Part shown: one piece after another, positions 3,339-46,418 of the stretch
Numbering within the stretch: position 1 is the first letter of the stretch
How the letters are laid out: each line of letters opens with the position of its first letter
Position numbers and translations under genes: made by a program
The notes under the pieces: model-generated
Told to the model about the DNA's origin: nothing
Database searches by the model: none
The model's input: only the letters and a program-made list of their open reading frames with translations
Origin: an uncultured Gemmatimonadota bacterium
Lineage (GTDB): Bacteria; GCA-2686955
Length of the DNA stretch: 64,000 bases
Direction of reading: 5' to 3'
NCBI GenBank assembly: GCA_964490075.1
Contig: CAZBBK010000002.1
Span: 50,105-114,104, forward strand

Positions 3339-4240
3339 GCGCACCTCTGGCCCTCGGCGTTCTGGGCGATCCGATCGCGCACTCCCTCTCGCCGGCGCTG
3401 CACGCCACGATGATCCGCCACTGGGGGCTCGACGCGATCTACCTGCCCTTCCGGGTGGCGCCCGAAGGCCTGGCCGGCGCCCTGGGCGGAGTGCGCGCGC
3501 TCGGCATCCGAGGCGTCAACCTCACCTTGCCGCACAAGGTGGCCGCGGCCGCCCTGGTCGATCGGCTGGAGGGCGACGCGCGAATCCTGGAGGCGGTCAA
3601 TACCGTGCGTCTGGAGGCCGATTCCACGCTCGGCGGCCACAACACCGATGCCCGCGGACTGGAGCTGGCGCTGCGCCACGCCCCGGGCGGCCCGTGCGCC
3701 AACCAGCCGAAGCGCGGCCCCGGAGCCGCGCTGATCCTCGGTGCCGGGGGAGCGGCGCGGGCCGCGGTCCTGGCTCTGGCGCGGCTGCGTTTCGACCCGA
3801 TCGCCCTCGCCGCCCGACGGACCGAGCAGGCCGAGGAGCTGTGCCGCGCTTTGCGCGCTGCACTCCCGCCCGGCACCTCGCTGCTGCCGGCGCTCCTGCA
3901 GTCGGAGCCGCTGCGCTCATCCCTGCAAAATCTGGGAGAGCCGGCGCTGATCGTGCAGGCAACCCCCTGCGGAGTCGGCAGACAGGCGGAGGAGGACCCC
4001 TGGCCGGCCGGGCTGCCCCTGCCGGCGGACGCCGCCTGCCTCGACCTGGTCTACCGGAGCGAGCCGAGCCCCTTCTTGCGCCGGGCGGCCGGCCGCTGGT
4101 GCGCCGACGGTCTGGCGATGCTGGTCTGGCAGGGCGCACTGGCGCTGCGCATCTTCTGCGGCGCGCCCCTTCCCCCGGCGCAGCAGGCGCGCGCCTGGGA
4201 GCAGGCGCTGCGCGCGCAGCGCTCGACGGAGGACGCCTGA
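3335..4240 (+). CDS. aroE: shikimate dehydrogenase
   Basis: MSAPLALGVLGDPIAHSLSPALH...GVNLTLPHK...NTD; internal start in the 1823..4240 frame; ATGA overlap with aroA. Confidence 0.85.
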   Translation: MSAPLALGVLGDPIAHSLSPALHATMIRHWGLDAIYLPFRVAPEGLAGALGGVRALGIRGVNLTLPHKVAAAALVDRLEGDARILEAVNTVRLEADSTLGGHNTDARGLELALRHAPGGPCANQPKRGPGAALILGAGGAARAAVLALARLRFDPIALAARRTEQAEELCRALRAALPPGTSLLPALLQSEPLRSSLQNLGEPALIVQATPCGVGRQAEEDPWPAGLPLPADAACLDLVYRSEPSPFLRRAAGRWCADGLAMLVWQGALALRIFCGAPLPPAQQARAWEQALRAQRSTEDA

Positions 4241-5889
4241 TGCGAGTGCTGATCGGCGGCTTCATGGGCAGCGGCAAGACCGTCGTAGGTCGTGCCCTGG
4301 CAGGGGCTCTGGGGACGGAGTTCATCGATCTCGACGAGCGGATCGAGGCGGCGGCGGGCGCCCCGATTCGAAGCCTCTTCGAGAGCCGCGGCGAGGCGGC
4401 CTTCCGCGCCCTGGAGCGCGAGCAGCTGACCCGCATTCTGGCCCGCCCCGGCCCCTTGGTGCTGGCCACCGGCGGCGGCGCGCTGCTCGACCCCCGGAGC
4501 GCCGCGTTGGCGCTGGCCGAATGCCACGTCTTTCGTCTGAGCGCCTCGCCAGCCGAGCTGGCCCGCCGCCTCTCCGGCTCCTCGGAGCGGCCGCTGCTGG
4601 ACCGCCCGCCCGGCGAGGACCTCGAGCAACACATCGCCGCCCTGGCCGCGGCCCGCGAATCGGCCTACCGCCGCTGCGGCATCTCGCTCAGCACCGAGGG
4701 GCGCACGCCGGCCGAAGTGGTGACGCTGCTCCGGGCCTTCCTCGGTCTGGCGCCCTTGCCGGTCGAGCACGGACCGGGCCGCCGCTATCAGGTGATCGCC
4801 GAGCCCGCCGCGCTCGACAAGCTCGGTTCGCTGCTGCGCCAGGCCTGGAAACACGGCGACGGCATCCTGGGCCGCGGACTGCCGCTGCCGCCCGGGGCGC
4901 CGGTGGTGGTGATCGCCGACCGCCGCGCCTGGAAGCTGCACGGCGAACGGCTCGAAGCGGCGCTGCGCGCCGTCGATCTGCGGCCGATGGTGCGCCCGGT
5001 GGCGGGCGGCGAACGCAGCAAATCGCGCGCGATGCTGGCCCGGATCCAGGACTTCCTGCTCGAGCGCGGCGTCGAGCGCGGCACGCCGGTGGTCGCCTTC
5101 GGCGGAGGCGTGATCGGCGATCTGGCGGGCTTCGCGGCGGCCACGGTGCTGCGCGGGTTGCCGGTGGTGCAGGTCCCAACCACCCTGCTGGCCCAGGTCG
5201 ACTCGTCGATCGGGGGAAAGGTGGCGGTCGATCATCCGCGCGGCAAGAACCTGTTGGGCGCCTTCCATCCGCCCAGCCTGGTGGTGGCTGATCCGGAGCT
5301 GCTCGCCACGCTGCCGCCGCGCGAGCGACGCTGCGGCCTGGCGGAGATCGTCAAGATGGCCCTGCTCGGCTCGCCGGGGCTTTTCGGGGCGCTCGAGGCG
5401 GCCGGAGGCGAGCCCGGCCCCGAGCTGCTGGGTCGGGCGATCCGCGAATCGATCGCCCTGAAGGCGGAGGTGGTGCGCGCCGATCCCGAGGAGGCCGGGA
5501 TGCGCCGAATCCTGAACCTCGGGCACACCCTGGGACACGCCATCGAACGCTGCAGCGAGTCCTGGCGCGCGTCGCACGGCGAGGCGGTGGCGGTCGGGCT
5601 GATCGGGGCGCTGCGCCTCGGTGCGCGCACGGGGCTCACCCCCGCGGCCCTCGATGCTAGAGTCGGCGCCTGTCTGCGGGCGCTGGGGCTGCCGGTGACC
5701 GTGCCCAACCTGCGGCCGGAGGCGATCGTCGCCGCACTGGCCCTCGACAAGAAGCGAAGCGAGGGGCGCATCGCCTGGGTGCTGCTGCGCGAGCTCGGCG
5801 AGCCGGCGATCAGATCCGATGTCCGCGCGCAGGATGTCGCCGCCGTCGCCGCCGACCTGACCGGCACCGAGGAGAAGGGCGCCTCATGA
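4240..5889 (+). CDS. aroKB: bifunctional shikimate kinase / 3-dehydroquinate synthase (AroK-AroB fusion)
   Basis: ATG 4240 overlapping the aroE TGA; N-terminal P-loop GFMGSGKTVVGRALA (shikimate kinase) runs through a short linker into DHQ synthase (GGGVIGDLAGFAAATVLRG...VDSSIGGKVAV...NLGHTLGHAIE) with no stop between them; about 549 aa. Confidence 0.85.
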   Translation: MRVLIGGFMGSGKTVVGRALAGALGTEFIDLDERIEAAAGAPIRSLFESRGEAAFRALEREQLTRILARPGPLVLATGGGALLDPRSAALALAECHVFRLSASPAELARRLSGSSERPLLDRPPGEDLEQHIAALAAARESAYRRCGISLSTEGRTPAEVVTLLRAFLGLAPLPVEHGPGRRYQVIAEPAALDKLGSLLRQAWKHGDGILGRGLPLPPGAPVVVIADRRAWKLHGERLEAALRAVDLRPMVRPVAGGERSKSRAMLARIQDFLLERGVERGTPVVAFGGGVIGDLAGFAAATVLRGLPVVQVPTTLLAQVDSSIGGKVAVDHPRGKNLLGAFHPPSLVVADPELLATLPPRERRCGLAEIVKMALLGSPGLFGALEAAGGEPGPELLGRAIRESIALKAEVVRADPEEAGMRRILNLGHTLGHAIERCSESWRASHGEAVAVGLIGALRLGARTGLTPAALDARVGACLRALGLPVTVPNLRPEAIVAALALDKKRSEGRIAWVLLRELGEPAIRSDVRAQDVAAVAADLTGTEEKGAS

Positions 5890-7363: not shown

Positions 7364-8728
7364 ATGGCTGACCTCTTCGCACCCGGCCTGAGCTTCGTCG
7401 AGGACGCGCTCGTCTTCATCCTCAGCCTGGGCCTGATGATTTTCTTCCACGAGCTTGGCCACTTCGCCGTCGCCAAGTGGTGTGACGTGCGCGTGCGGAC
7501 TTTCTCGATCGGGATGGGACGCAAGATCCTGCGCTACCAGCCGGGGGAGACCGAGTACGCGATCAGCGCCATCCCTTTCGGCGGCTACGTCAAGATGTCG
7601 GGCGAAACGCCCGAGGATCTGCGCGGCGGCGACGGGCGCGATTTCGCCTCGAAAGGGCTCGCCGCGCGCGCGGCCATCGTGCTCGCCGGTCCGGCCATGA
7701 ACGTGGTCCTGGCCTTCGTGATCCACTATGGCCTCTGCCTCGCGTTGGGAATCGAGGGGCCGCGCCCGGTCGGGATCCAGATGGTTCAGCCCGGATCGGC
7801 CGCCTTCGATGCCGGCCTGCAGGTGGGCGATCGCATCGCGCGCATCGACGGCGTGGAGATGGGATCGCCGCTGGACGTCGTCGAGGCGGTGCGCGGCGGC
7901 CCTCGGGGCGCGGCGTTGGCGCTGGAGATCGCGCGCGAGGACCAACATTTGAGCCTGCGCGTGACGCCGCGATTCGACGACTCTCTGGGCGTGCCCTTGC
8001 TCGGCGTGCGCACTCAGGCGATCCTGGAGCCGGTGGTCGGTTCGGTGAAGCGCGGAGGCACGGGCGAGGAAGCCGGTTTCCGCGAAGGGGATCGAGTGCT
8101 AACGGTGGCCGACGACCCGGTCGAGTGCTGGCGCGATGTGCAGGTGGCACTCTCCGACGCCATCGATCGCGAGATCGAGGTCGCGGTGCTGCGCGCGGGG
8201 GAGCGACACCCGCTGACCCTGATGCCCACGACCAACCCATTGGCACCGGAACGTCCCGACGGCACGCCGCTGGCCGATGTCGGGATGGTGCCGCAGGAGC
8301 TGCGCATCCAGGTGTCGTGGATCGGCGCGCTCGATGCGGCGCTGGTCGCCACCTGGCACGACAGCGTCTACCTCTTGGAGAGCCTGCGCCAGATCCTGAC
8401 CTTCCAGGTCGGCCGCGAAAGCGTCGCGGGACCGGTCGGGATCGCCACCGTGATCGCCGAGACCTACGCCTACGGGTTCGATCGGTTGCTCCGTCTGGTG
8501 GCCCTGATCAGCGTCAACCTGGCGGTGATCAACCTCTTTCCCTTCCCGGTGCTGGACGGCGGGCAACTGGTCTTCTTCACCATCGAAGCGGTGACGCGGC
8601 GCCCTCTGAACGAGCGGGTGATGATCATCGCCAATCAGATCGGAGTCGTGGTGCTGCTCCTGCTCTTCGTCTTCCTGACCCTCAACGACATCGATCGGAT
8701 TCTGCCCTTCTCGATCCTCGGGGGCTAG
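7364..8728 (+). CDS. rseP: RIP site-2 zinc metalloprotease (M50, RseP-like) with PDZ domains
   Basis: HELGHF zinc motif in TM1, PDZ region, and LDGG motif (NLFPFPVLDGGQLVFF); 454 aa. Confidence 0.88.
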   Translation: MADLFAPGLSFVEDALVFILSLGLMIFFHELGHFAVAKWCDVRVRTFSIGMGRKILRYQPGETEYAISAIPFGGYVKMSGETPEDLRGGDGRDFASKGLAARAAIVLAGPAMNVVLAFVIHYGLCLALGIEGPRPVGIQMVQPGSAAFDAGLQVGDRIARIDGVEMGSPLDVVEAVRGGPRGAALALEIAREDQHLSLRVTPRFDDSLGVPLLGVRTQAILEPVVGSVKRGGTGEEAGFREGDRVLTVADDPVECWRDVQVALSDAIDREIEVAVLRAGERHPLTLMPTTNPLAPERPDGTPLADVGMVPQELRIQVSWIGALDAALVATWHDSVYLLESLRQILTFQVGRESVAGPVGIATVIAETYAYGFDRLLRLVALISVNLAVINLFPFPVLDGGQLVFFTIEAVTRRPLNERVMIIANQIGVVVLLLLFVFLTLNDIDRILPFSILGG

Positions 8729-8734: not shown

Positions 8735-9322
8735 ATGCGCATCATCGCTTCCTCGGCGCTGGTGGCCGCGATCGCGCTGGCCGGCTGCACCCCGGCGCCG
8801 CCGCTCGATCCGGACGATGGTGGTCCCCAGTCCTGGATCCTGACCCGCGCTTCGCATCCGACCGGTTTCGGGCGGTCCGACTGCTTCAGCGCCGGTTGCC
8901 ACGCCGAGGCCGGCTTTGGCTACGACGCCGGCTCCGACGAGCATCTGCTCCCCGAGCTCTCGTGCGTCGCCGGCGACTGCCACGGCGACAACGGCATTTT
9001 CGAGCAGAGCCTGGTCACCGGAAAGGTCTACGCCGACGCCGGCGGCGGCGAGGTGGAGCAGGGAATCGTGGTGATCGCCGAAGAGGCCGGCAATCCTCAG
9101 AACAGCGTGGAGGCCGCCCCCAGCGACAGCGACGGGCAGTTCAGCCTGGTGCTGCCGCAGATCGGCACTTACGACTTCGTGCTCCGCGACCGCAACGACG
9201 CCACCACTCGCTCGATCGACCACGGCATGAGCAGCCTGACGATCGGCGGCGACCCGGAGCGCTCCCTCGACTGCGGCGAGTGCCATGGACGCAGCGCCGG
9301 CTTCCTGGCGCCGGTCCGCTAG
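8735..9322 (+). CDS. lipoprotein with one CXXCH and two CX4CH motifs (possible c-type heme- or metal-binding lipoprotein)
   Basis: signal peptide plus lipobox LAGC; motifs CFSAGCH, CVAGDCH, CGECH; lies between rseP and the Omp85 gene. Confidence 0.55.
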   Translation: MRIIASSALVAAIALAGCTPAPPLDPDDGGPQSWILTRASHPTGFGRSDCFSAGCHAEAGFGYDAGSDEHLLPELSCVAGDCHGDNGIFEQSLVTGKVYADAGGGEVEQGIVVIAEEAGNPQNSVEAAPSDSDGQFSLVLPQIGTYDFVLRDRNDATTRSIDHGMSSLTIGGDPERSLDCGECHGRSAGFLAPVR

Positions 9323-9383: not shown

Positions 9384-11270
9384 GTGGTGTTTCGCTCTTC
9401 TCGGCCCGTTCCCCCCCCCGCCGTGCTCCTGTTGCTGCTCGCCTGCCTCCTCGTGTCGGCAGGCGCCGGGCGGGCGCGGGCGGCTTGGAGCGACGAGCAG
9501 CCGCCGCTCGCCATCCGCTCGATCCGCTTCGAGGGCAACCGCGAGCTCTCGCGCGCCTCCCTGCTCGACGCGATGCAGCTCTCCGAGGCCACCACGTGGC
9601 GCCGCACCCTCGGCCTGGAAGATATCGAGTTCGATCCGCTCAAGTACCAGATGGACGTGCGCGCGATTCGCTATCGCTACCAGCGCCAGGGCTTCGTACG
9701 CGCCGCCGTGAAGGCCGAGCGGGTGCGCGTCGACTCGCTGGCTCAAGCGGTCGACCTGGTGATCAACATCGAGGAGGGGCCCCGCTACCGCTTCGGACGG
9801 GTATCGGTGCAGGGCGCCGCGCTGATCGATCCCGAGAATATCTGGCCGCTGCTCGGCACCCGCCCGGGCGAGCCGGCCAACCTGCACCAGGTGAAAGCCG
9901 ACGCCGGCACGGTGCGCACCCACTACCGCAACCGCGGCTTCGTGCGCGCCCGGGTCGACTTTGAGAACACGATTCGTGAGGACGATTGGAGCGTCGATAC
10001 CGTCTTCCAAATCAACGAAGAGCAGCCCTACACGATCGGCAAGGTCTACACCCGAGGCAATCTCGAAACCCGTGACGCGATCGTGCTCCGCGAGATCGCC
10101 ACGCGAGGGGGTCAGCTCTACAACCTCGAGACGGTCCTATCCGACGAGCGCAATCTCTACAACACCGGGCTCTTTTCCGGCGTCAAGGTCAGCGAATCGG
10201 CGCTCGACTCGATCCGCCACACCGTGAACCTGCGGGTCGAGGTGATCGAGCGCAGCCCGCGCTGGATCTCCTTCGCGCTCGGTTCGAGCACCGATGAACG
10301 CGAAAACGTGCGCCTCTCCGCCGATTGGGGCCACAAGAACCTCTTCGGCACCGCCCGCCTGGTGACCCTGCGCGGCCTCGCCACCTGGCAGTTCAGCCGC
10401 TTCTTCGACAAGCGCAAGCTCGACCCGATCGCCAGCCGGGTCGAGATCGCCTATCTGCAGCCCTGGATCTTCGGCTACCGGATCAGCGTCGGAGGCACGG
10501 TGTTCAGCGCCCAGGAGATCCCCCTCGGGCGCCAGGACCGGCTCAGCACCCACGGCATCACCGCCCGGCTCCTGCGCCGCATCGGCACCGAGGCCGAGCT
10601 CTACCTCGAGCCGAAGCTGCAGTGGGCCAACGAGTCGACCGAGGATCGCATCCTCGACCGCGACATCAGCCAGACCAAGAGCGTCACCCTTGCCTATCGC
10701 CGCGACTCGCGCCTCAACGTCTTCGCGCCGCGCCGCGGCACCGCCACCAGTCTCACATTGACCCACGCCGGCGGGGTGCTCGGCGGCGACTTCGATTTCC
10801 GCCGCGCCACCGCCAGCCATGCCCGCTTCCTCGACCTGGGCGACGGCAGCGTCGCCGCGGCGCGCCTCTCCTGCGGCGCCGCGGCCCCCTTCGACGACTC
10901 GGACGAAATCCCCCTCGACCAGGTCTTCACGGCCGGCGGCGCCAGCACGGTGCGCGGCTACCTGGAAGGGGGGCTCGGCACCGCCGACACGCCCGAAGAG
11001 GGGGGACGGGTGCTGCTCCTGGCCAACCTGGAGCTGCGCCAGCGCATCGCCGGCTACTTGGGCATCGCCCCCTTCCTCGACGGCGCTCAGGTCTGGCCCT
11101 ACCTCTCGGCGCTCCGACCGGTGGCCGATATGCGATGGAGCACCGGCGCCGAGCTGCGCTACCAGACCCCGATCGGACCCTTGCGCATCGGCTACGGAGT
11201 GAAGCTCAACCCGGCCGCCGGAGATCCCCATCCGGGATCGTGGTTCTTCGGTTTCGGGCAGGTGTTCTGA
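9384..11270 (+). CDS. bamA: Omp85-family outer membrane protein assembly factor (BamA/TamA-like)
   Basis: signal peptide, POTRA-like repeats, C-terminal beta-barrel ending in an aromatic residue (...GFGQVF); sits in the cdsA-rseP-bamA context and directly upstream of tamB. Confidence 0.78.
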   Translation: MVFRSSRPVPPPAVLLLLLACLLVSAGAGRARAAWSDEQPPLAIRSIRFEGNRELSRASLLDAMQLSEATTWRRTLGLEDIEFDPLKYQMDVRAIRYRYQRQGFVRAAVKAERVRVDSLAQAVDLVINIEEGPRYRFGRVSVQGAALIDPENIWPLLGTRPGEPANLHQVKADAGTVRTHYRNRGFVRARVDFENTIREDDWSVDTVFQINEEQPYTIGKVYTRGNLETRDAIVLREIATRGGQLYNLETVLSDERNLYNTGLFSGVKVSESALDSIRHTVNLRVEVIERSPRWISFALGSSTDERENVRLSADWGHKNLFGTARLVTLRGLATWQFSRFFDKRKLDPIASRVEIAYLQPWIFGYRISVGGTVFSAQEIPLGRQDRLSTHGITARLLRRIGTEAELYLEPKLQWANESTEDRILDRDISQTKSVTLAYRRDSRLNVFAPRRGTATSLTLTHAGGVLGGDFDFRRATASHARFLDLGDGSVAAARLSCGAAAPFDDSDEIPLDQVFTAGGASTVRGYLEGGLGTADTPEEGGRVLLLANLELRQRIAGYLGIAPFLDGAQVWPYLSALRPVADMRWSTGAELRYQTPIGPLRIGYGVKLNPAAGDPHPGSWFFGFGQVF

Positions 11271-14200
11271 TGCGCCGCAGACGACGCATCGCCTGGCGCG
11301 TGCTGCTCGCGGTGGCGGCGCTCGGACTGCTGGTGGGCATCGTGTTCCGGGTCGGCGCCGGCTGGCCCATGACCCGCGCCCTGCTCAACGCCACGCTGCT
11401 GGAGCCCTTCGATTGTGAGCTGGCCGGCGGTCGCGTGCGCTGGTCGCTGGTGCCGCGGGTGCGGATCGACGCCCGCGACGTTTCGCTGCTGGGGGCTGGA
11501 TTCACGGCCTCGGTGGGACGCTTCCATGCCCAGCTCTCGGGTGTCGAGCTGCTGGCCGGAAAGCTGGCCCTCTCCGAGCTGCACGCCGAAAAAGTGCGCA
11601 TCGACCTGGCGGCGGGACAGGGAGGCGCGGAGACGCCGCAGCTCCCCGATCCGGCCGCGCTCGCCCTGCCCCTGACGCGGCTGCGCTGCGAGAGCATCGC
11701 GCTGGAGGATCTGCTCCTGACCCGGGAAGGCTCATCGGCCGACTTCGAGCTGGCGGTGCTCAGCGGCAGCCTCGATCGCCGCCCCGAGGGTCCGACCCTG
11801 GCGATCGACACCCTCGCCGCCTTGGTCGAGCTGCCCCAACCCTTGATTCTGCGCGCGGCGGGCGCGGAGCTCGTGGCCTGGCCCGAACGCTTCCAGGCGC
11901 GCAAGCTCTGCGCCGAGATCGGCACCGGAAGGCTCGAAGGCGACGCCGGCCTGTGGCCGGGGGCGCAGGGTCCCGCCTGGGAGCTCGAGCTCGACTTCGA
12001 CCGCTTCTCGCTGCAAGCCATCCGCGGCCTGGTCGACGCCACGCTGACCCGCGCCGAGAGCCGCCTGAGCGGCCATCTGCAGGCGCGCGGCGAGGCCGAC
12101 ACCATCCACTTCGCGGGTCGCGTGCAGGGATTCGTCGATCCGATCGAGATCGATGCCGAGGCGGTCGCCGGCTGGTGGGACGGCACCGAGCTGGTGCTGG
12201 CGCAGGGGCGCGGGCTCGTCGAAGAGATCGGGATCGACGTGGCCAGCGCGGCGATCGATCCGCGCACTCAGGACTACCGGCTGCAAGGGATCGTGAGCGA
12301 CTTCGACCTGGAGCCCCATCTCGACTTCATGGCCGGCACCGTGCTGAGCGGGCCGGTGGAGCTGGAAGGCTCGCATTTCGGCGGCGAGGAGCTCTGGATC
12401 GACGCCCGGGCAGCGCGGCTGCAGGGCTCGGTGTTCGGACTTGCGCTGGAAGGAGGCGCCCTGGACCTGCGCTACGCCGATCAGCACTTCGCCTTCGACA
12501 GCCTGAGGGTCGGCTGGCCGGGCGCCGCCGTGGCCGCGCGCGGCACGGTCGACCTCGACAGCGAGCGCATGCGCTGGGACGGCCATCTGGCGCTGCGGCC
12601 GGAATCCCCCTTCTTCGCCAGCTTCGTGCCGGTCGAGGGGCTGCGCTGTGCGCTGCGGGCCGACGGGCGTCTTGGCGGTCCCCTGGAAACTCCCCGCCTG
12701 ACCGCCACCTACGCCGGCGGGCACCTCGAGTACGGCGCCCTGCTGCTGGACGAGCTGCGCGGCGAGGTCGATCTCGATTCGGTGTTCCATCGGCCGACCG
12801 GCCGAGCCGCGCTGCGCGGCGCGGGCGCTCTCGGCGTGCTGCCGATCACCATCGACGAGAGCGCGCTGGTGGTGCGCGGACGCGAGCTCTTCCTCACGGA
12901 GCTCTTGGCCCACCAGGAGCGGCGCCGGATTCGCGCCAGCGGCCCGCTGCGAATCGACCAGGGGTTGTCCGGAGACCTCGGCGAGCTGGCCCTCGACTCG
13001 CCCTTCGGTGGGGCGGTGGCGGGCGACACGGTGCACTTCGCGAGCGATTCGATCGCCTTCCACCTCGCGCCCACCACGATCCACCTGGCCGGCGGCGACC
13101 TGAGCCTGGAGGGTCGCTGGAGCGGGGAAGAGGGGCTGGACATGGGCTTCGCCTGTGAGCGCATCGATCTCGAGCGCCTGGTGCGCCTCGGGGGCGGCGC
13201 GGCGCGCAGCGCGGCGGGGCGGCTGAGCGGCCAGGGACGAATCAAGGGCACTTTCGAGGATCCCGGCGTCAGCGGCGAGTGGCGCGTGGAGGGACTCCAG
13301 GTCGGGCCGGCGCACCTAGGCGAGCTGCGCGCGGGAGCCGCCCTGCGGCACGGGCGGATCCACGTCGATCACCTCAGAGCCCAGCACCGCGGCTCGACGC
13401 TGCGCGCCTTCGGGGACTATCCGCTCGGACCTCAGCTCGGCTGGCATCCCCTTCCAGGCGCGCCCGACAGCGTCTTCCTCAACCTGGAGCTGGAGGAGTG
13501 GAGCCTGGCCGAGCTGGGAGCGCTGGTGGCACTCGATTCGCTGGGCGGCCAGGTCGACGCGCACGCACGGCTCTCGGGCACCCTGGCCGCACCGCAGCTC
13601 GCCCTCTCGGCCGACGCCTTCGCGCTGACGGTGCTGGGGGACGACTACGGCGAGCTCAGCCTCGAGACCGAGTTCCAGGCCGGCCGGCTACACCTCCGGG
13701 CCCGCGACCAGGCCGGTTCCCAGGCTCGCGGCACGGTACCCTTCGACTTCACACTGGCGCCGCCCGCCTTCGCCCCGGGGGACGATTCGCTGAGCGTCGA
13801 GCTCAGCCTGCGAGAGATCGACGCCGCCTTCCTGCGCCATCTGGTTCCCGACATCGACTCGGCCGGCGGCCCTTTGAGCTTCGAAGGGCGTCTCGGAGGG
13901 CAGCTGCCCTGGCCCGACGCCTATGGCGAGCTGCGGGCCCGGCAGGGGAGGGTGCGCCTGATCTGGATGGACGTGCCGCTGCACGCGATCTCGGGCAGGG
14001 TGCGAGTCGACGGAACGCGGGCACGGGTCGAGCGGGCCACCGGCCGCATGGGGGCCGAGGGGCGCTTCGAGGCTGCCGGGTTGGTGCGCCTCGACGACTT
14101 CGTGCCGGTCGACTACGACCTGGAGGTGAGCGGCAAGGCGCTGCCGATCGGCTGGATTCCCGATCTGCGTGCGGTGGTGGACGCCGATCTGCGCTTTGCC

Positions 14201-15121
14201 GACAACGTCCACATCAGCGGCGACGTCCAGGTGCACGAGGCGGTCTACAGCCGCGCCTTCGGCGAGGAGCCGGAGCCGATTCCGCCGCCCGCCTTGCCGG
14301 GCGAGGAGCTGCCCTTCGCGCTCAGCTACGACTTGATGCTCGAAGGCGATCGCAACATCTGGCTGCGCAACACCGAAGCGGAGATGGAGCTGCGCGGCAA
14401 GGCGCACCTGCAGAGTCTGGCCGAGTACGACGAGCTGCCCTTCACCATCCAGGGCGAGCTCGAGGTGATCCGCGGCACCTATACCCTGCTGGGCAAGAAC
14501 TCGTTCGAGATCGAGCGCGGCACGATCCGCATGCTCGATCCCTCGGTCCTCGATCCGGAGATGGAGGTCGAGGCGCGGGCCACCTTGCGTGAGCGGGTGC
14601 GCGACGAACAGGGCCGCTACCAGAGCCGCTCCGTGCCGATCCATCTCTCCCTCACCGGGGAGTTCTTTTCCGACCTGACCTACCAGTTCACCGATCTGTC
14701 GCAAGGCCACGCCCCGATCCCGATCGAGGACATGGTCCTGCTGCTCACCTTCGGGCGGCGCCGCGCGGCCATCGATCAAGGCGGTCTCTACGACCAGAGC
14801 ACGGCCGCCGCCGACGCCAGCGCCATCACCGCCCAGCTGCTGGAGACCCGGGTCAGCGAGCTGCTCGATATCTCGCTCGACATCAGCACCGGCAGCAGCT
14901 CCCCCCTGGAGTCGCTCGACGAGACCTACGTGGGACTCGGCAAGTATCTGAATCCGAAGCTCTTCGTCTACTACAGCCAGTACCTCTCCGCCGACCCGCG
15001 GCGGCGCCTGGGCGTGGAGTACGCCTTCACCGACCAGGTGCTGGTCGCCGGCGAGCTCGACGAGACCGATCCCAACGCCTCGCGCTACAACGTCGATCTG
15101 CGCTACCGGCTGGAGTACTGA
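11270..15121 (+). CDS. tamB: translocation and assembly module protein TamB (AsmA-like, DUF490 C-terminus)
   Basis: ATG 11270 overlaps the bamA stop; N-terminal signal-anchor MRRRRRIAWRVLLAVAALGLLVGIV; about 1283 aa; C-terminus ...LGKYLNPKLFVYYSQYL...NVDLRYRLEY typical of TamB. Confidence 0.8.
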   Translation: MRRRRRIAWRVLLAVAALGLLVGIVFRVGAGWPMTRALLNATLLEPFDCELAGGRVRWSLVPRVRIDARDVSLLGAGFTASVGRFHAQLSGVELLAGKLALSELHAEKVRIDLAAGQGGAETPQLPDPAALALPLTRLRCESIALEDLLLTREGSSADFELAVLSGSLDRRPEGPTLAIDTLAALVELPQPLILRAAGAELVAWPERFQARKLCAEIGTGRLEGDAGLWPGAQGPAWELELDFDRFSLQAIRGLVDATLTRAESRLSGHLQARGEADTIHFAGRVQGFVDPIEIDAEAVAGWWDGTELVLAQGRGLVEEIGIDVASAAIDPRTQDYRLQGIVSDFDLEPHLDFMAGTVLSGPVELEGSHFGGEELWIDARAARLQGSVFGLALEGGALDLRYADQHFAFDSLRVGWPGAAVAARGTVDLDSERMRWDGHLALRPESPFFASFVPVEGLRCALRADGRLGGPLETPRLTATYAGGHLEYGALLLDELRGEVDLDSVFHRPTGRAALRGAGALGVLPITIDESALVVRGRELFLTELLAHQERRRIRASGPLRIDQGLSGDLGELALDSPFGGAVAGDTVHFASDSIAFHLAPTTIHLAGGDLSLEGRWSGEEGLDMGFACERIDLERLVRLGGGAARSAAGRLSGQGRIKGTFEDPGVSGEWRVEGLQVGPAHLGELRAGAALRHGRIHVDHLRAQHRGSTLRAFGDYPLGPQLGWHPLPGAPDSVFLNLELEEWSLAELGALVALDSLGGQVDAHARLSGTLAAPQLALSADAFALTVLGDDYGELSLETEFQAGRLHLRARDQAGSQARGTVPFDFTLAPPAFAPGDDSLSVELSLREIDAAFLRHLVPDIDSAGGPLSFEGRLGGQLPWPDAYGELRARQGRVRLIWMDVPLHAISGRVRVDGTRARVERATGRMGAEGRFEAAGLVRLDDFVPVDYDLEVSGKALPIGWIPDLRAVVDADLRFADNVHISGDVQVHEAVYSRAFGEEPEPIPPPALPGEELPFALSYDLMLEGDRNIWLRNTEAEMELRGKAHLQSLAEYDELPFTIQGELEVIRGTYTLLGKNSFEIERGTIRMLDPSVLDPEMEVEARATLRERVRDEQGRYQSRSVPIHLSLTGEFFSDLTYQFTDLSQGHAPIPIEDMVLLLTFGRRRAAIDQGGLYDQSTAAADASAITAQLLETRVSELLDISLDISTGSSSPLESLDETYVGLGKYLNPKLFVYYSQYLSADPRRRLGVEYAFTDQVLVAGELDETDPNASRYNVDLRYRLEY

Positions 15122-16332
15122 TGCGAGCCTTCGGTCGCAAGCTGCCGCCGCTCTCGTCGACCCTCTTGATGGTCTACGTGCTCCTCGGCGCGGTGCTCGC
15201 CACCGGCGGCGCATTCCTCTACGTCCACGGTCTGCTGCGCGCCCTCAAGCAGGACGCGCAGGTGGTGAGCGAGGTCTACGGGCGTTTTTGCACCATTGCC
15301 GGCGATCCCGACGGCGACGCCGAGGCGCTCGACGTGATCTTCGACCATGTCATCCGGCGCATCGACTTCCCGGTGATCATCACCGACGCCGAAGGGGTGC
15401 CGCGCCACTGGGTCAACGTCGGCCTGGCCCCCGATGCCGACGATCCAGCACGCCTGCTCTCGATGATCGACGAGATGGATCGCCGTGCGGCGCCGATCGA
15501 TGTGCGGGTCGGACGCGAGGGACCGCTGATCAGCCGCGTCCACTTCGCCGAGTCCGATCGGATCAAGGACCTGCGCCGGATCCCTTTCATTCTGGTCGGC
15601 GTGATCCTGCTCTTCTTCGGGGTCGGGCTGTGGATCATCTACCTGCTGCGCGAGCAGGAACATCGGGCGCTCTGGGTCGGATTGGCGCGCGAGACCGCTC
15701 ACCAGCTCGGCACCCCGCTCTCCGGCCTGGCCGGATGGGTCGAGCTGCTCGGCGAGGGCAGTCTCGGCCCCGAGGCGGCCGCGGCGGAGATGACGGTGGA
15801 GCTCACCCGCCTGGAGGCGGTGGCGTCGCGTTTCAGCCGCATCGGTTCGCGGCCGCAGCTCGATGCCGTCGATCTGGGCGCGGTGGTGGGCGAGGTGATC
15901 GAGCGTTTTCGGCGCCGCTCCAGCTCCTCGGTGGTGCGCTTCGAGGAGGCGCACGATTCCGACGCCGTGGTGCGCGGCGACCGCCAGCTGCTGGCCTGGG
16001 TGGTCGAGAACCTGGTCGGCAACGCCGTCGACGCCTGCCGTGCGGGCGGCGATCATGGCACCATCTCGGTGCGCTGCGCGATCGACGCCGAGGCCGGCCG
16101 CATCCGCCTCCAGGTGGGCGACGACGGCCGCGGCATGACACTGAACGAGGCCCGCCGCGCCTTTCGCCCCGGCCACACCACCAAGGCAACCGGCTGGGGA
16201 CTGGGACTGGCGCTGGCGCGTAGAATCGTGGAGGACGATCATGGCGGGCGCATCTTCTGCGCCCGAACCCGCCCCGGCGAGGGCACCACCATCGAGGTGC
16301 AGCTACCGCTCCACCTGTCGCATCCGAGCTGA
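15121..16332 (+). CDS. two-TM sensor histidine kinase (PorY-like architecture)
   Basis: start overlaps the tamB stop; two TM helices, H-box HQLGTPLS, HATPase_c (GNAVDA...DDGRGM...GWGLGLALA). Confidence 0.8.
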   Translation: MRAFGRKLPPLSSTLLMVYVLLGAVLATGGAFLYVHGLLRALKQDAQVVSEVYGRFCTIAGDPDGDAEALDVIFDHVIRRIDFPVIITDAEGVPRHWVNVGLAPDADDPARLLSMIDEMDRRAAPIDVRVGREGPLISRVHFAESDRIKDLRRIPFILVGVILLFFGVGLWIIYLLREQEHRALWVGLARETAHQLGTPLSGLAGWVELLGEGSLGPEAAAAEMTVELTRLEAVASRFSRIGSRPQLDAVDLGAVVGEVIERFRRRSSSSVVRFEEAHDSDAVVRGDRQLLAWVVENLVGNAVDACRAGGDHGTISVRCAIDAEAGRIRLQVGDDGRGMTLNEARRAFRPGHTTKATGWGLGLALARRIVEDDHGGRIFCARTRPGEGTTIEVQLPLHLSHPS

Positions 16333-16334
16333 TC

Positions 16335-17885
16335 ATGCCCAGTCCCGCACACATCCTCTGGGTCGACGACGAGATCGACAGCCTGCGCTCGCTCCTGGTG
16401 TCGCTGGAGAGCGCCGGCCACCGCGTCACGGCGGTCACCAACGGCGACGACGCGATTCAGCATCTGCGCCGCGGCGGGATCGACCTGGTGCTGCTCGACG
16501 AGATGATGACCGGCCTCGACGGGATCGCGACGCTGGTCGCGATGCGCGAGATCGACCCCGCGGTCCCGGTGGTGATGGTGACCAAGATCGAGGAAGAGGA
16601 GCTGATGAACCGCGCCTACGAGGCGCGCGCCGACGACTACCTGATCAAGCCGGTGCGCCCCTCGCAGGTGCGGGCCGTGATCAAGAAGCTGCTCGACTCC
16701 GAGCGCATCGTGGGGGAGGGGATCCGGCGCAACTACGGTCGCGAGATGGCGCGCGTCGGCGCCGAGCTTTCCGAAGGGCTCGATGCCGAGGGCTGGATCG
16801 AGACCGCGCACTGGCTCTTTCGGCGCCAGATCGAGCTGGAGCGGCTGCGCGATGCGGTGCTGCTCGACACCCACGCCGGCCTGCGCCGGGATGCCAACCG
16901 CGCCTTCTTCCGCCACCTGGCGGCGGCCTATCCGAGCTGGCTCGAAGAGGGGGGACCGCTGCTCTCGCACCGCGTCGTGGAGCGCAAGGTGGTGCCGCAT
17001 CTGCGCCAGGGCGAGCGGGTGCTCTTCCTGGTGCTCGATTGCGTGCGCGCCGACCAGTGGATGGCGCTGGAGCCGCACCTGCGCCGGCTCTTCGCGGTGG
17101 AGCCGGCCTTCGGCCTTTCGCTCTTGCCGACCGCCACCCCCTTTGCCCGCAACGCGCTTTTCGCGGGCCAGCTTCCGGCGCAGATTCGCCGTCTCCATCC
17201 CGCGCTCTGGGAGGACGATTTCTCCGTGGAGAGCTCGCTGAACCGCCACGAGAAGGAGCTCTTGCGCCTGGCCCTGCGCGAGCACGGCCTCGGCGGCTGC
17301 TCGTTTCGCTACGAGCGGGTCGACGGTGGCGCGGCGGCCCAGCAGCTGGCGCAGCGCCTGGCTTCGGCCTCCGACGTGCAGCTCTACGCGGTGGTCTACG
17401 GCTTCGTCGACATCCTGGTGCACAAACGCAGCGAGTCGGAGGTGATCCAGGAGATCACCGCCACCGAGGCGGCCTACCGCGCCCTGACCGCCACCTGGTT
17501 CGCCCACTCGCCGCTGCGCGCCGTGCTGGCGGCCGCCGCCAAGGCGGGTCGCACGGTGGTGCTCACCTCCGACCACGGCTCGGTCACCGTGCAGCGCCGC
17601 GCCGGGGTGGTCGGCGATCGCCGCACCACCACCGCGGTGCGCTACAAGATCGGCCGCAATATCCACGCCGATCCCCGCCACGCCCTCGACATCCGCGATC
17701 CCGAGCGCTGGGGCCTGCCGACGCCCTCGATCAACAGCAACTACCTGGTCGCCTCGGAGGACCATTTCTTCGTCTATCCGAACCAGCAGCGGGCCTACGA
17801 GCGGCGCCTGACGGGCACCCTGCAGCACGGCGGCGCCAGTCTCGAGGAGATGGTGGTCCCGGTGGCCACCCTGAGGCCGCGATGA
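16335..17885 (+). CDS. response regulator with receiver domain fused to an alkaline-phosphatase-superfamily (PglZ-like) domain (PorX-like architecture)
   Basis: N-terminal CheY-like REC (ILWVDDE...DLVLLDEMM...LIKP); C-terminal about 350 aa with a VVLTSDHGSV metal-site motif; 516 aa, which is the size of PorX. Confidence 0.65.
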   Translation: MPSPAHILWVDDEIDSLRSLLVSLESAGHRVTAVTNGDDAIQHLRRGGIDLVLLDEMMTGLDGIATLVAMREIDPAVPVVMVTKIEEEELMNRAYEARADDYLIKPVRPSQVRAVIKKLLDSERIVGEGIRRNYGREMARVGAELSEGLDAEGWIETAHWLFRRQIELERLRDAVLLDTHAGLRRDANRAFFRHLAAAYPSWLEEGGPLLSHRVVERKVVPHLRQGERVLFLVLDCVRADQWMALEPHLRRLFAVEPAFGLSLLPTATPFARNALFAGQLPAQIRRLHPALWEDDFSVESSLNRHEKELLRLALREHGLGGCSFRYERVDGGAAAQQLAQRLASASDVQLYAVVYGFVDILVHKRSESEVIQEITATEAAYRALTATWFAHSPLRAVLAAAAKAGRTVVLTSDHGSVTVQRRAGVVGDRRTTTAVRYKIGRNIHADPRHALDIRDPERWGLPTPSINSNYLVASEDHFFVYPNQQRAYERRLTGTLQHGGASLEEMVVPVATLRPR

Positions 17886-18367: not shown

Positions 18368-19049
18368 AGCGTCGGGCGCCATCAGCGGCGCGGCGCTGCT
18401 CATCGATGAGCACGGACCCAGCACCGTGGAGCTGGCCGGGCGCGGGCGCCACGCGCGAAGCGTGAGCGAGGCGGTGGCGATGCTGCTACAGAGCCTCGAC
18501 CTGGAGCCGAGCGCCGTCGACCTGGTCGCGGTCGGCCGCGGACCCGGCTCATTCACCGGCGTGCGGGTGGCGATGGGAGTGGCGAAGGGCTTCGCCGTGG
18601 GCCGCGGGATCGAGATCGTCGGGGTGTCGTCGCTAGCGGCGATCGCGGCGTCGGCCTGTGTCGAAGGCTCGGTGGTGCTGGCGGCCGCCGACGCCCGGCG
18701 CGGCGAAATCTACGCCGGCCTCTTCGCGCCCGATCCGACCGCGCTCTTGCCCCTGCCGCTGAGCGAAGAGGTCGCCATCGGCCTGCCGCGGCTCGGCGGC
18801 TGGCTGCGCGCCGGGCTGCCCAAGGGGCTCGCTCTCACGGTCGCCGGCGATGGGGCCGAGAAGGCGGCCGCGGCGCTGCTGGACGATCCCGAGCTGGAGC
18901 TCCCGGTGCGCCTCGCGGCACCGGAGGCACGCCGCTCGGCCGCGCCGGGATGCGTCGCTCGTCTCGGCCTGGCCCGCCACCGCGCCGACGGCGCCGATGA
19001 TCCCGAAGCCCTCGATCCGGTCTACATCCGGCCGGGGGTGGGAGGATGA
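18348..19049 (+). CDS. tsaB: tRNA t6A37 biosynthesis protein TsaB (YeaZ)
   Basis: MKILGIEASGAISGAALL...GRGPGSFTGVRV; placed in a tsaE-tsaB-rimI arrangement. Confidence 0.8.
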   Translation: MKILGIEASGAISGAALLIDEHGPSTVELAGRGRHARSVSEAVAMLLQSLDLEPSAVDLVAVGRGPGSFTGVRVAMGVAKGFAVGRGIEIVGVSSLAAIAASACVEGSVVLAAADARRGEIYAGLFAPDPTALLPLPLSEEVAIGLPRLGGWLRAGLPKGLALTVAGDGAEKAAAALLDDPELELPVRLAAPEARRSAAPGCVARLGLARHRADGADDPEALDPVYIRPGVGG

Positions 19050-19519
19050 AGACCCGCCGCGCCTTCGCCACCGACCTGCCGCGCCTGCTCGAGCTGGAGC
19101 GGCGCATCTTTCCCGATCCCTGGTCGCGGGAGATGTTCCTCGAGCAGATGGCGGAGGGGCTGGTGCTGGTCGCCTCGCTGGAGACGCGGTCCCCGATATT
19201 CGGCTACGTCGCCGCGGTGCGCGAGTATCGACGGGTTCACATCACCAACCTGGCGGTCGAGCGGGGCGAACGGCGGCGGGGGAGCGGTCGCCGGCTGCTC
19301 GATGCCGTGCTCGACGCCGGCCGCAGAGACGGCGCGCGCAGTGCTCTCTTGGAGGTGAGAGCGTCCAACGCGGCGGCCGCCGCCCTGTATACTGCGGCCG
19401 GATTTCGCCCGGTCGGCCGCCGCGCGGGCTTCTACCCGCGCGATCTCATCGGAGCCCGCGAGGATGCCGTGGTCTATCGCCTCGAGCTGCATCCGCTATC
19501 GAACCAGAGCAGTCCATGA
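19046..19519 (+). CDS. rimI: ribosomal-protein-alanine N-acetyltransferase (GNAT)
   Basis: GNAT motif ITNLAVERGERRRGSGRRLL; conserved position after tsaB. Confidence 0.75.
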   Translation: MKTRRAFATDLPRLLELERRIFPDPWSREMFLEQMAEGLVLVASLETRSPIFGYVAAVREYRRVHITNLAVERGERRRGSGRRLLDAVLDAGRRDGARSALLEVRASNAAAAALYTAAGFRPVGRRAGFYPRDLIGAREDAVVYRLELHPLSNQSSP

Positions 19520-40549: not shown

Positions 40550-40620
40550 GAGCTGATCATGGAGGCGCTTCCGGGACCCGTCAACTCCCCGCCTTCAACG
40601 CGACGTCGAAGTCGGCGATC

Positions 40621-40650
40621 CAGGGTCCCGGCGACTTTGCCGGGACCCTG
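40621..40650. repeat. perfect 12-bp inverted repeat CAGGGTCCCGGC-gacttt-GCCGGGACCCTG in the divergent mntA/vapB intergenic region
   Basis: read directly from the sequence; candidate operator or RNA hairpin. Confidence 0.6.
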
Positions 40651-40668
40651 GTCGGCGGTCGGCGAACA

Positions 40669-40697
40669 TTGACATCAGCAAAATGATGTCATAGGCT
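40669..40697 (+). promoter_or_regulatory. vapBC promoter candidate with embedded operator palindrome (TTGACA - TGACATCA gcaaaa TGATGTCA - TAGGCT)
   Basis: -35 TTGACA, 17-nt spacer, -10 TAGGCT; perfect 8-bp inverted repeat spans the spacer; about 40 nt upstream of the vapB GTG with a GGAGA RBS. Confidence 0.5.
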
Positions 40698-40739
40698 TCA
40701 GATGGCGCCTTCACTCGGCCTGGGAACGCGGAGACTCCA

Positions 40740-40991
40740 GTGAGACAGCTAACCGTACGCAACGTGCCGGCGGATCTGGCCCGCGCCCTCAAAGCCGAGC
40801 GCAGCGCTCGAGGCATCTCTTTGAATCAGACCGTGATCGAGCTGCTGCGCCGCGCCTTGGGGCTGACGCCTGGCGCAGCCTATGACAACGGCCTGGGCGA
40901 TATGGCCGGCACCTGGAGCGCCGCCGACCTGGCGGAGTTCGAGCGCAACGTGCGGGTGTTCGAGCAGGTGGACGAGGAGCTGTGGCGCTGA
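40740..40991 (+). CDS. vapB: RHH-type antitoxin (VapB/FitA-like)
   Basis: MRQLTVRNVPADLARALK N-terminus typical of RHH/FitA antitoxins; GTG start; 10-nt overlap with vapC. Confidence 0.7.
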   Translation: MRQLTVRNVPADLARALKAERSARGISLNQTVIELLRRALGLTPGAAYDNGLGDMAGTWSAADLAEFERNVRVFEQVDEELWR

Positions 40992-41389
40992 CACGCATCT
41001 GTCTCGACACCTCGGCCTACAGCCACTACAAGAGGGGCGACGCTCGGGCCGTCGAGGTGCTGAGCCGAGCGACCCGTGTCGGGATCCCCGCCGTGGTGCT
41101 GGGCGAGCTCAGAGCGGGATTCCGTCGCGGTGGCCGAGCCGAGCGCAACGAGCGCGAGCTGCTGGAGTTCTTGCGCCATCCGCTCGTGGAGATGCTGCCG
41201 ATCGATGATGAGGTAGCTTCGATCTACGCGGATATCGTCATCGACCTCCGGCGCGGGGGCACCCCGATCCCCACCAACGACGTGTGGATCGCGGCGCTCG
41301 CGGCTCGCGACGGATCGGTCGTCGTGACCTACGACGCGCACTTCGAGCAGATCGCGAGGATCGGGACGAAGGTGCTTTCGACCGAGTAG
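40982..41389 (+). CDS. vapC: PIN-domain ribonuclease toxin VapC
   Basis: ICLDTSAY (conserved Asp), further acidic residues (D94, D115 regions); 135 aa. Confidence 0.75.
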   Translation: MALTRICLDTSAYSHYKRGDARAVEVLSRATRVGIPAVVLGELRAGFRRGGRAERNERELLEFLRHPLVEMLPIDDEVASIYADIVIDLRRGGTPIPTNDVWIAALAARDGSVVVTYDAHFEQIARIGTKVLSTE

Positions 41390-41657: not shown

Positions 41658-42398
41658 CTACCAGCAGAGGGTCTCACCCTGCTCGGCCCAGCCAACCCGC
41701 CCTTCCTTGCCGTGGCAGGGCCGGCGGTCCGCGCAGCGGTGGGTGAGAAGCACCCGCCTCGCTCCGGCCGCCAGCGCCGCCTCCGCCCCCGCCTCGGGCT
41801 CCACGTGCAGGGCATCGATGACCGCCAGGTCGACGCCCGCGGCGTCGCGCCGCACCTCGGCCGCGTCGGCCAGATCGCCGGAAACGTAAAGATGATGCTC
41901 TTGGTGCGAGAACAGAAACGAGTAGCTGCGCGTGAGCGCCGGTGCGTCTCCCGCCGGCAGATGGGCGTTCGGAAGCGCCCGCAGCCGCAATCCACCCGGC
42001 AAGTCGTGCGGTCGCCCGGTCTCCAGGGGGCGGGCGCCGACCACGCCTTCGATCCGCCGCCGGTCCATTCCGAAGAAGCGCAGCATGGCGTGGAGCTCGG
42101 GCAGCGCCTCGTCAGGCACCAGCAAAGGCACGGCCGCCCGCTTGCCCTCGCCGGCCAGCCGCAGTCTCTGCACCAGGCCCGGCAGCCCTCCCGCGTGGTC
42201 GGCGTGCAGGTGGCTGACCACGATCGCCCCCAACTCGAAATCGCCGTGCCCCGCTTCAGCCAGCGCCCGGGAGACTCCGTCGCCGGCGTCGACCAGGATC
42301 GGCGCGGCCCCCACCACCCGCACCAGCAACGAGGCGTGGGGGCGGCCGGTGGGGCTCAGCGCGCAGCCGCTGCCGAGCACCGTGATCGAGCGCGTCAT
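41658..42398 (-). CDS. MBL-fold metallo-hydrolase
   Basis: HxHxDH motif (SHLHADHAGG); last gene of the minus-strand glycan operon. Confidence 0.7.
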   Translation of the reverse strand: MTRSITVLGSGCALSPTGRPHASLLVRVVGAAPILVDAGDGVSRALAEAGHGDFELGAIVVSHLHADHAGGLPGLVQRLRLAGEGKRAAVPLLVPDEALPELHAMLRFFGMDRRRIEGVVGARPLETGRPHDLPGGLRLRALPNAHLPAGDAPALTRSYSFLFSHQEHHLYVSGDLADAAEVRRDAAGVDLAVIDALHVEPEAGAEAALAAGARRVLLTHRCADRRPCHGKEGRVGWAEQGETLCW

Positions 42399-45228: not shown

Positions 45229-46418
45229 CCGCGCTCGGCCTCGGCGCCCGCCGATCCGGCCCCCACCTTGGGCGGCTCGGAAGGCTTCGAGTGCACCTGC
45301 CTGGAGCTGCCGAGGCGCATGATCACCGCCACCAGAGCCATCAGGCAGAGCGCCTGGAGTGCGACGATCACCCCTTCCAGGGTGGTGACGTTGCGCAGAA
45401 TGGTGGCGTTGATCCCGAGGCAGAAGGTGAGCAGGTAGACCATCTGCACCGCCTGCGCCTGGCTCGCGCCGAGGTCGACCAGGCGGTGCGAGAGGTGGCA
45501 TTTGTCGCCCCGGTAGATCGGTCGTCCCTCCCGGATCCGGATCCAGACCACGCTGGCCGTGTCGAAGAGCGGCAAGCTGAGGATGATCAGCGGCATCAGC
45601 ACGCCCAGGATCGAGCTCTCGCCGAAGGTGACATAGCTCTGCAAGAGCGCCAAAGCCCCCAGGATGTAGCCGATGAAGAGCGATCCGGCGTCGCCCAGGA
45701 AGATGGTCGAGGGGTAGATGTTGTGGCGCAGGAAGCCGAGCAGCGAGCCGGAGAAGGCGCACAGGATCAAGGCAACGAAGAACTGGCCCGACTGAATCGC
45801 CACGAAAGCGAGAATGGAGCTGGCGATCAGCGCCACGCCGGAGACCAGTCCATCCATGTTGTCGAGGAGGTTGAAGGCGTTGGTGAAACCGACCAACCAG
45901 AGCAGGGTTAGCACGCTGTTGTGCAGATCGTAGGGCAGCGCATCGGGCCACAGGCTGGTGCGCACTCCCGCCGACATCAGCACCAGCGCCCCGAAGACCT
46001 GACCGGCCAGCTTCAAGAGCACCGGGAAACGCTCGCCGAAGAAATCGTCGAGCAGGCCTGTGACGAAGATCACCGAGGCGCCGATGGTGAGGCCGAAGAG
46101 CTGGCTCCTGACCGCACCGATGCCGGTCGCCAGGTCGAAGATATCGGTCAGTCGCGATTCCAGGAGCGGCGAGTGCTTGGCGTAGCGGAAGGCCAGGAAG
46201 TTCAGCGCGATGGTCGCCAGGAAGGCGACGTAGACCGCGAAGCCGCCCAGCAGCGGCTTGGCGCATGCGTGCACCTTGCGCTCCCCCGGGTGGTCGACGA
46301 TTCCCCAGCGCAGCGCGATCCACTTGGCGCAGGGCACCAGCATGAGCGCGATGAAGGCGCCGCAGCTCAGCACCCACCAGGACGCGACCACGCGTTGGGC
46401 TTCGGGCGCCAGATTCAT
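45225..46418 (-). CDS. WecA/MraY-family polyprenyl-phosphate hexose-1-phosphate transferase (initiating transferase)
   Basis: NAFNLLDNMDGL motif; multi-TM; 397 aa. Confidence 0.75.
   Translation of the reverse strand: MNLAPEAQRVVASWWVLSCGAFIALMLVPCAKWIALRWGIVDHPGERKVHACAKPLLGGFAVYVAFLATIALNFLAFRYAKHSPLLESRLTDIFDLATGIGAVRSQLFGLTIGASVIFVTGLLDDFFGERFPVLLKLAGQVFGALVLMSAGVRTSLWPDALPYDLHNSVLTLLWLVGFTNAFNLLDNMDGLVSGVALIASSILAFVAIQSGQFFVALILCAFSGSLLGFLRHNIYPSTIFLGDAGSLFIGYILGALALLQSYVTFGESSILGVLMPLIILSLPLFDTASVVWIRIREGRPIYRGDKCHLSHRLVDLGASQAQAVQMVYLLTFCLGINATILRNVTTLEGVIVALQALCLMALVAVIMRLGSSRQVHSKPSEPPKVGAGSAGAEAERG

Follow-up and report, generated by a model that had tools for sequence, protein, structure and literature searches.

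A predicted triheme c-type cytochrome lipoprotein encoded between rseP and a shortened Omp85 gene in uncultured Gemmatimonadota-like bacteria

What kind of protein is encoded by the small gene that lies between rseP and an Omp85 gene in an uncultured Gemmatimonadota bacterium, and what does this position say about its function? The question is raised by a stretch of 64,000 nucleotides of DNA, called the window here, in which an open reading frame of 195 codons plus stop occupies exactly positions 8735..9322 of the + strand. An earlier note on this DNA had described the product as a 195-aa lipoprotein with the motifs CFSAGCH, CVAGDCH and CGECH, and the open reading frame and the motifs were found as written. 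This gene and its product are referred to as X, homologues obtained in the searches carry P-numbers, and loci carry L-numbers. The features of X are the following:

8735..9322, + strand: X, predicted triheme c-type cytochrome lipoprotein, stop included (open reading frame, translation, GC3 of 0.89, family alignment)
8735..8788, + strand: predicted lipoprotein signal peptide (residues 1-17) and lipobox L-A-G-C18; Cys18 is invariant in 13 of 13 members
8855..8857, + strand: His41, candidate distal heme ligand, located 9 residues ahead of site 1; invariant in all 13 members
8882..8902, + strand: predicted heme site 1, C50-FSAG-C55-H56, CX4CH (CFSAGCH, residues 50-56); C50, C55 and H56 are invariant
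8942..8944, + strand: His70, candidate distal heme ligand between sites 1 and 2; a His is found there in every member
8963..8983, + strand: predicted heme site 2, C77-VAGD-C82-H83, CX4CH (CVAGDCH, residues 77-83), followed by a conserved G-x-N-G; C82, H83, G84 and N86 are invariant
9005..9244, + strand: central transthyretin-like or CarboxypepD_reg-like beta-sandwich, approximately residues 91-170
9227..9229, + strand: Met165, the sole internal Met, candidate distal (His/Met) ligand; conserved in 12 of 12 sequences that reach this column
9272..9286, + strand: predicted heme site 3, C180-GE-C183-H184, CXXCH (CGECH, residues 180-184); present in 12 of 12 full-length members, with the frameshift of P0010 corrected

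The N-terminus of X consists of MRIIASSALVAAIALAG followed by C18, with a predicted cleavage site between LAG and C18. The lipobox L15-A16-G17-C18 stands after the hydrophobic stretch IIASSALVAAIA and fits the pattern [LVI][ASTVI][GAS]C; it is directly followed by a Pro-rich tether, TPAPPLDP, and one family member gives a weak match to LPAM_1. Export, which c-type cytochromes require, can be predicted for X from the sequence of its signal peptide and lipobox. The protein contains seven cysteines in total, namely the lipobox Cys18 and six that lie within the CXnCH motifs, and the third motif is placed 11 residues from the C-terminus.

High-GC DNA yields many long spurious open reading frames, with which the window is filled, and 49 open reading frames of at least 50 aa overlap its 5-14 kb region. 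X might accordingly not be a real gene, or its motifs might have arisen by chance in a GC-rich frame. This explanation is extremely improbable. The codon-position GC of X (0.68/0.53/0.89) is like that of real genes in the 70% GC window, and homologues with the same motifs occur in genomes of 50-54% GC. Three C-x(2-4)-CH motifs were obtained in none of 500,000 shuffles of mature X (two motifs in 23 of 500,000), and such motifs are absent from the other likely genes of the window. Because the family of X is conserved, the idea of a spurious open reading frame is effectively refuted. The internal repeat that the earlier note had read into the motifs and their Gly-rich surroundings fared less well. 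A short likeness around the motifs does exist (shuffle p of approximately 0.0005 for motif 2 against motif 3, and 0.016 for motif 1 against motif 2), but motif 1 against motif 3 is not significant, and because the likeness extends over no more than 11-17 residues at the motifs, a repeat is weakly supported at best.

X belongs to a tiny and previously undescribed family of about 13 distinct sequences. A word-indexed search of 5.8 billion proteins returned five close relatives, and 1.84 billion cluster representatives, searched exhaustively with an HMMER profile, yielded eight full-length matches (186-213 aa), together with a 108-aa fragment (P0005) and a 91-aa N-terminal module (P0017). A second profile search added one further member. 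The homologues share 30-72% identity and are under selection, and they come from marine metagenomes and from metagenome-assembled genomes labelled Gemmatimonadota or Gemmatimonadetes; a search for related loci with the first alignment retrieved only three contigs, from genomes with these two labels. Five other matches (P0013-P0016 and P0018) were rejected as spurious because their sequences contain no CXXCH. These are repeat-rich proteins matched via Ig-like repeats, and P0013 and P0014 are giant proteins.

The lipobox Cys, H41, C50/C55/H56, C77/C82/H83 with the G-x-N-G, M165 and C180/C183/H184 are invariant or nearly so, even in members with as little as 30% identity. Three CXnCH sites are present in 12 of 12 full-length members, so that the motif-less homologues which the earlier note had named as evidence against its reading were not found, and at each of the three sites the second Cys is followed by a His in every member. 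The spacing within the motifs is more flexible. Site 1 is CX4CH in most members, CXXCH in P0017, CX5CH in P0010 and P0011, and CX6CH in P0008, and site 2 is a canonical CXXCH in P0008, P0012 and P0017. P0010 at first appeared to be a homologue without the third motif. Its database protein is wrong at the C-terminus, because a frameshift within a G homopolymer (L105, 1340..1360; coverage 2.4x) hides the third CXXCH; the adjacent frame reads GGQACSECHGNSPDTEKIWF and then a stop, and supplies CSECH.

These conserved features suggest that X is a lipid-anchored, periplasm-exposed triheme c-type cytochrome that founds a new family and acts as a periplasmic electron relay, and we regard this as the probable explanation. 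CX4CH is a described heme motif (PMC11492766), and CX5CH and CX6CH, which are seen at site 1 of some members, are outside the heme motif list of the same paper; a literature search on the CXnCH spacings that maturation systems tolerate gave nothing usable. The switching between CX4CH and CXXCH, combined with a constant His after the second Cys, is what true heme c sites would show. In addition, the number of further conserved ligand candidates is exactly three, namely H41, the His near position 70 (6-9 residues ahead of site 2 in most members) and M165. Three sites with three extra candidates fit three six-coordinate hemes, with a putative ligand assignment suggested by conservation.

Cytochrome c maturation genes provide a second line of evidence, as the earlier note had proposed their absence from the genome as a reason to abandon a cytochrome. 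Elsewhere in the window, no cytochromes, CXXCH proteins or ccm/ccs genes were found. On the contig that carries the window (Ga0118727_1000086, L104), the 10 kb beyond the left end of the window were also examined, and these contain a System II synthetase pair at L104 1245..4246, approximately 5.7-8.7 kb left of the window start, on the same strand as X and 14.4 kb upstream of it. The first gene of the pair encodes a ResB-like protein of 375 aa (PF05140, 71 bits) and the next one, directly after it, a CcsA/ResC-type protein of 625 aa (PF01578, 81 bits) with the WWD motif WGRFWGWDPKEN. The latter has an N-terminal extension of approximately 350 residues and scores 122 bits against TIGR03144, below the cut-off of 187.6. 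With ResB and CcsA on the contig, the genes for a System II cytochrome c synthetase are present in the organism. More generally, caa3- and cbb3-type oxidases have been reported in 74% and 50%, respectively, of 326 Gemmatimonadota genomes (PMC9426454), and both oxidases contain heme c subunits. The small periplasmic (multi)heme cytochrome first proposed from the motifs thus gains support from motif conservation and from the synthetase genes, and it stays a prediction from sequence. The same contig carries a fused shikimate kinase and 3-dehydroquinate synthase of 549 aa (L104 14194..15843, corresponding to approximately 4240..5889 of the window), and this fusion is kept in all related loci that cover the gene.

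A possible route from precursor to functional protein can be outlined. The X precursor would be exported, cleaved and acylated at Cys18, after which ResB/CcsA would attach heme to C50-X4-C55-H56, C77-X4-C82-H83 and C180-XX-C183-H184, with the His of each motif as the proximal ligand. H41, H70 and M165 may serve as distal ligands, which would result in two bis-His hemes and one His/Met heme, as judged from their conservation and exact number. Sites 1 and 2 lie in a Gly-rich segment of approximately 55 residues, arranged much as in cytochromes c7 and c3 (His-8-CXnCH-~13-His-~6-CXnCH), and the C-terminal third site would fold back onto this pair. The transthyretin-like sandwich between sites 2 and 3 could then act as a scaffold or docking surface, and X would form a short, membrane-tethered electron relay between redox partners in the periplasm or the membrane.

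The surroundings of two relatives are consistent with such a role. P0017, which is the diheme module of 91 aa alone, lies amid genes with faint matches to multiheme cytochromes, and P0012 adjoins SCO1, COX4 and COX3. Near X itself no redox partner genes were found, and its neighbors are envelope-biogenesis genes.

An alternative is that X is an exported lipoprotein without heme, in which each Cys pair closes a short disulfide loop, three in all, or the Cys and His residues jointly bind zinc, copper or iron. Comparisons with databases leave some room for this, since all family models score below their thresholds: Pfam and NCBIfam gave nothing above threshold for X, with no NCBIfam match at all. 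The only matches were to CarboxypepD_reg (PF13620; E of 0.006, 17.3 bits against a gathering cut-off of 32.3) and Cytochrome_C7 (PF14522; E of 0.023, 14.9 bits against a cut-off of 24.8), the latter originating from site 3. The best family member reached an E of 0.0014 with Cytochrome_C7, and because the score of X is below the Pfam cut-off, X is not filed under the cytochrome c7 family. Single members also match Anti-TRAP (E of 0.025) and DnaJ_CXXCXGXG (E of 0.61), the CHG at sites 2 and 3 resembles CXXCXG, and a variability from CX2C to CX6C would be easier to tolerate in a disulfide loop. On the other hand, the invariant His after the second Cys is accounted for neither by disulfides nor by zinc sites of the Cys4 type, and six Cys cannot form whole Cys4 sites. 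In DnaJ-type and zinc-ribbon proteins Cys4 sites arise from CXXC pairs, whereas the three pairs of the X family are each followed by His and have X4 spacing in most members. The match in number between sites and extra ligands fits heme, as do the synthetase on the contig and the relatives found among cytochrome and oxidase genes. Moreover, most weak family matches are to cytochromes: those of the members are nearly all to cytochrome c models (C7 in 6 of 13 members, CBB3 in 4, c3_2 in 3), and further ones are to Paired_CXXCH, MtrC II/IV and GSu_C4xC__C2xCH. A lipoprotein without heme is consequently considered unlikely.

Structural modelling covers the center of the protein best. An AlphaFold2 (AF2) model from 5 sequences had a pLDDT of 44, and one from 13 sequences a mean pLDDT of 69, in which residues 91-170 form a beta-sandwich at pLDDT 82-93 and the heme-bearing segments reach 54-64. 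The low values of these segments are as expected, because the model is an apo-model built from a shallow alignment, and they are the reason why the fold search matched the sandwich alone. The modelled sandwich has the seven strands of the prealbumin-like fold, and the carboxypeptidase-regulatory-like domain guessed earlier from the sequence accordingly appears in the predicted model as a transthyretin-like sandwich. A profile search of PDB sequences with the X family produced only chance-level matches (E of at least 0.6) to beta-sandwich modules, and hhalign of the family against an approximate PpcA sequence aligned one column and was uninformative.

Several known cytochromes can be compared with X read as a triheme lipoprotein. 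Cytochrome c7 (PpcA family, PF14522) and tetraheme cytochrome c3 (class III) share with X the packing of approximately three hemes into little polypeptide and, as predicted, the layout His...CXnCH...His...CXnCH...C-terminal CXXCH. The PpcA sequence also ends in CGECH, and cytochrome c3 has CX4CH at two of its sites. X differs from both in its sandwich of approximately 80 residues between sites 2 and 3, its lipid anchor and its apparent His/Met heme, whereas c7 and c3 are soluble and bis-His, and it reaches the membership threshold of neither family. PF09698 (GSu_C4xC__C2xCH) has the same pairing of CX4CH and CXXCH as X and matches one member at a sub-threshold E of 0.012; it comes, by its Pfam name, from multiheme proteins of Geobacter, and X is a 195-aa lipoprotein.

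PgcA of Geobacter sulfurreducens is a triheme c-type cytochrome located outside the cytoplasmic membrane (PMC5732950). It is, like X, small and triheme, but no sequence similarity between the two was found in any search. PgcA is a predicted lipoprotein as well; it is built from monoheme domains that Pro-Thr repeats connect, and it lacks a beta-sandwich. MtrC and OmcA are lipoproteins that, like X, combine multiheme segments with beta-sheet domains, and two X family members give weak matches to the MtrC/MtrF II-IV domain. MtrC and OmcA are decaheme proteins of approximately 650-750 aa, with split beta-barrel domains and MtrAB partners. X has no significant similarity to them, and no porin-cytochrome genes are found nearby.

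The position of X is as distinctive as its motifs. The placement between rseP and the Omp85 gene that the earlier note had given is confirmed by family models of both neighbors:

7364..8728, + strand: rseP, site-2 metalloprotease, M50 with two PDZ domains (TIGR00054, 302 bits; PF02163, E of 1.7e-62)
9423..11270, alternative start 9384, + strand: Omp85 protein with three POTRA domains, in the usual bamA position (PF01103 and three POTRA matches)
11270..15121, + strand: TamB-like protein of 1283 aa (PF04357, 130 bits); the same gene follows in related loci

The rseP stop is 6 nt upstream of the X start, and no terminator-like site or unusually stable hairpin was found between X and the Omp85 gene; X would be co-transcribed with rseP, the shortened Omp85 gene and tamB. 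The Omp85 protein scores 259 bits against the BamA model TIGR03303, below the cut-off of 297, and covers model positions 148-732 only. It is a shortened, 3-POTRA form followed by TamB, and not an enterobacterial-type BamA. TamB-like proteins are the subject of a distribution study (PMC4494059), and a TamB-BamA interaction in Borrelia is the topic of another paper (PMC5582053).

The order rseP-X-Omp85(3 POTRA)-TamB is kept in 10 of the 12 members examined. It is seen around P0002, P0003, P0004, P0007, P0011 and P0019, and on short contigs P0008 and P0010 each lie between the 3' end of rseP and an Omp85 gene, and P0009 stands after rseP at a contig end. These loci include that of P0011 (L010), where RseP is 36% and Omp85 32% identical to those of the window and GC is 50% versus 70%. 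The divergence of X is about equal to that of its neighbors, and X is inherited vertically. Two members are exceptions: P0012 is solitary and convergent with a SCO1-ferredoxin-SOD-COX4-COX3 cluster, and P0017 is located beside a Cus/Czc-type efflux system.

A metagenome scan with the Omp85 protein gave no matches at first, and a second scan provided 80 distant Omp85 loci, at most 29% identical, as negative controls. None of these 80 loci contains an X homologue or, among six-frame open reading frames, one with two or more CXnCH motifs. In the 35 distant loci linked to rseP, the Omp85 gene directly follows rseP, with no open reading frame of at least 60 aa in between. The earlier remark that nothing equivalent sits in the enterobacterial rseP-bamA interval therefore holds more widely, namely in 35 of 35 metagenomic loci. 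Most of the 35 rseP-linked Omp85 frames are approximately 750-790 codons long from stop to stop, which fits five POTRA domains. Four loci (L024, L025, L030 and L036) have a shorter Omp85 directly after rseP and no X, and tamB is next in L030. Because the order rseP-X-Omp85 is found in the X family and is absent from the control loci, X is a lineage-specific insertion into an ancient operon.

Such a conserved address could also mean that X mainly serves the shortened Omp85 and TamB, as an accessory lipoprotein of the machine that they would form for outer-membrane assembly, and that its hemes, if present, are structural or sensing. The gene order of 10 of 12 members, the divergent L010 included, points in this direction, and so do the tight gene spacing without a detected terminator and the three POTRA domains of the window Omp85 as compared with the longer Omp85 proteins of most X-less loci. 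BAM complexes normally include lipoproteins, and the BAM/TAM accessory lipoproteins resemble X in being encoded by a small lipoprotein gene beside Omp85 and tamB. Against this, P0012 and P0017 are found outside the operon, beside cox genes and multiheme genes, and the four loci with a short Omp85 after rseP lack X even where tamB is present (L030). X also shows no similarity to BamB-E or to any NCBIfam model. To our knowledge, heme has no role in outer-membrane protein assembly, and we know of no Bam or Tam component with heme motifs such as those that X carries. Since the adjacency of rseP and bamA is ancient, an inserted gene would stay in place without a functional link, and hitch-hiking in a highly stable cluster explains the placement of X equally well. 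An accessory role in assembly is for these reasons given a low probability, and the narrower idea that X is a lineage-specific, heme-bearing lipoprotein subunit of a 3-POTRA Omp85 and TamB machine is thought slightly less probable still. If this last idea were true, X would be the first component with a redox cofactor in any BAM/TAM-type system. For the triheme electron relay, which is preferred, the operon position is taken as an inherited placement rather than proof of shared function.

Other genes of the window are recorded here as separate observations. After tamB, a histidine kinase (403 aa) and a response regulator-PglZ fusion (516 aa) occupy 15121..17885, and the pair is found at the same place in the closer loci L001, L004 and L013. 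An 853-aa open reading frame at 18850..21411 has coding-like GC3 and no Pfam match at E <= 0.001. Envelope-gene regions at 26441..28837 and 33669..38713 include an LptD-like protein (PF19838) and two Amidase_3 proteins, one of which is fused to TPR/YfiO(BamD)-like and AMIN parts (36944..38713). Adjacent paralogues of 497 and 466 aa at 30493..33590 have weak, sub-threshold Sortilin-Vps10/BNR-type matches, and an S8 subtilase on the opposite strand (28915..30234) adjoins them. Apparent toxin-antitoxin pairs are located at 39858..41389, with a nucleotidyltransferase (40235..40549) and its substrate-binding HEPN-like partner (39858..40247), and a PIN-domain protein (40982..41389) with a small open reading frame ahead of it (40740..40991). 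A large polysaccharide biosynthesis cluster on the - strand (42395..56975) contains several GT4 and GT2 glycosyltransferases, a flippase-like Polysacc_synt protein, a carbamoyltransferase, a methyltransferase and a PMT_2-like protein.

X represents a tiny, undescribed family of a well-known kind of protein, and it is unusual in its architecture, its motif spacings and its genomic address. If the triheme reading is correct, the family would be a new compact multiheme family that places three hemes on approximately 178 residues around a transthyretin-like sandwich, with no detectable homology to catalogued cytochrome families. It would also offer a natural series of spacings (CX2, CX4, CX5 and CX6) at one homologous site in a System II host, which could help to examine how much variation CcsBA tolerates in its substrates, and site 1, if loaded with heme, would be a case of natural heme c attachment at CX5CH and CX6CH. 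Motif counts based on CXXCH only would score X as monoheme. For the organisms themselves, X may be either a redox protein in the envelope biogenesis of uncultured marine Gemmatimonadota-like bacteria or an electron carrier trapped in a very stable operon.
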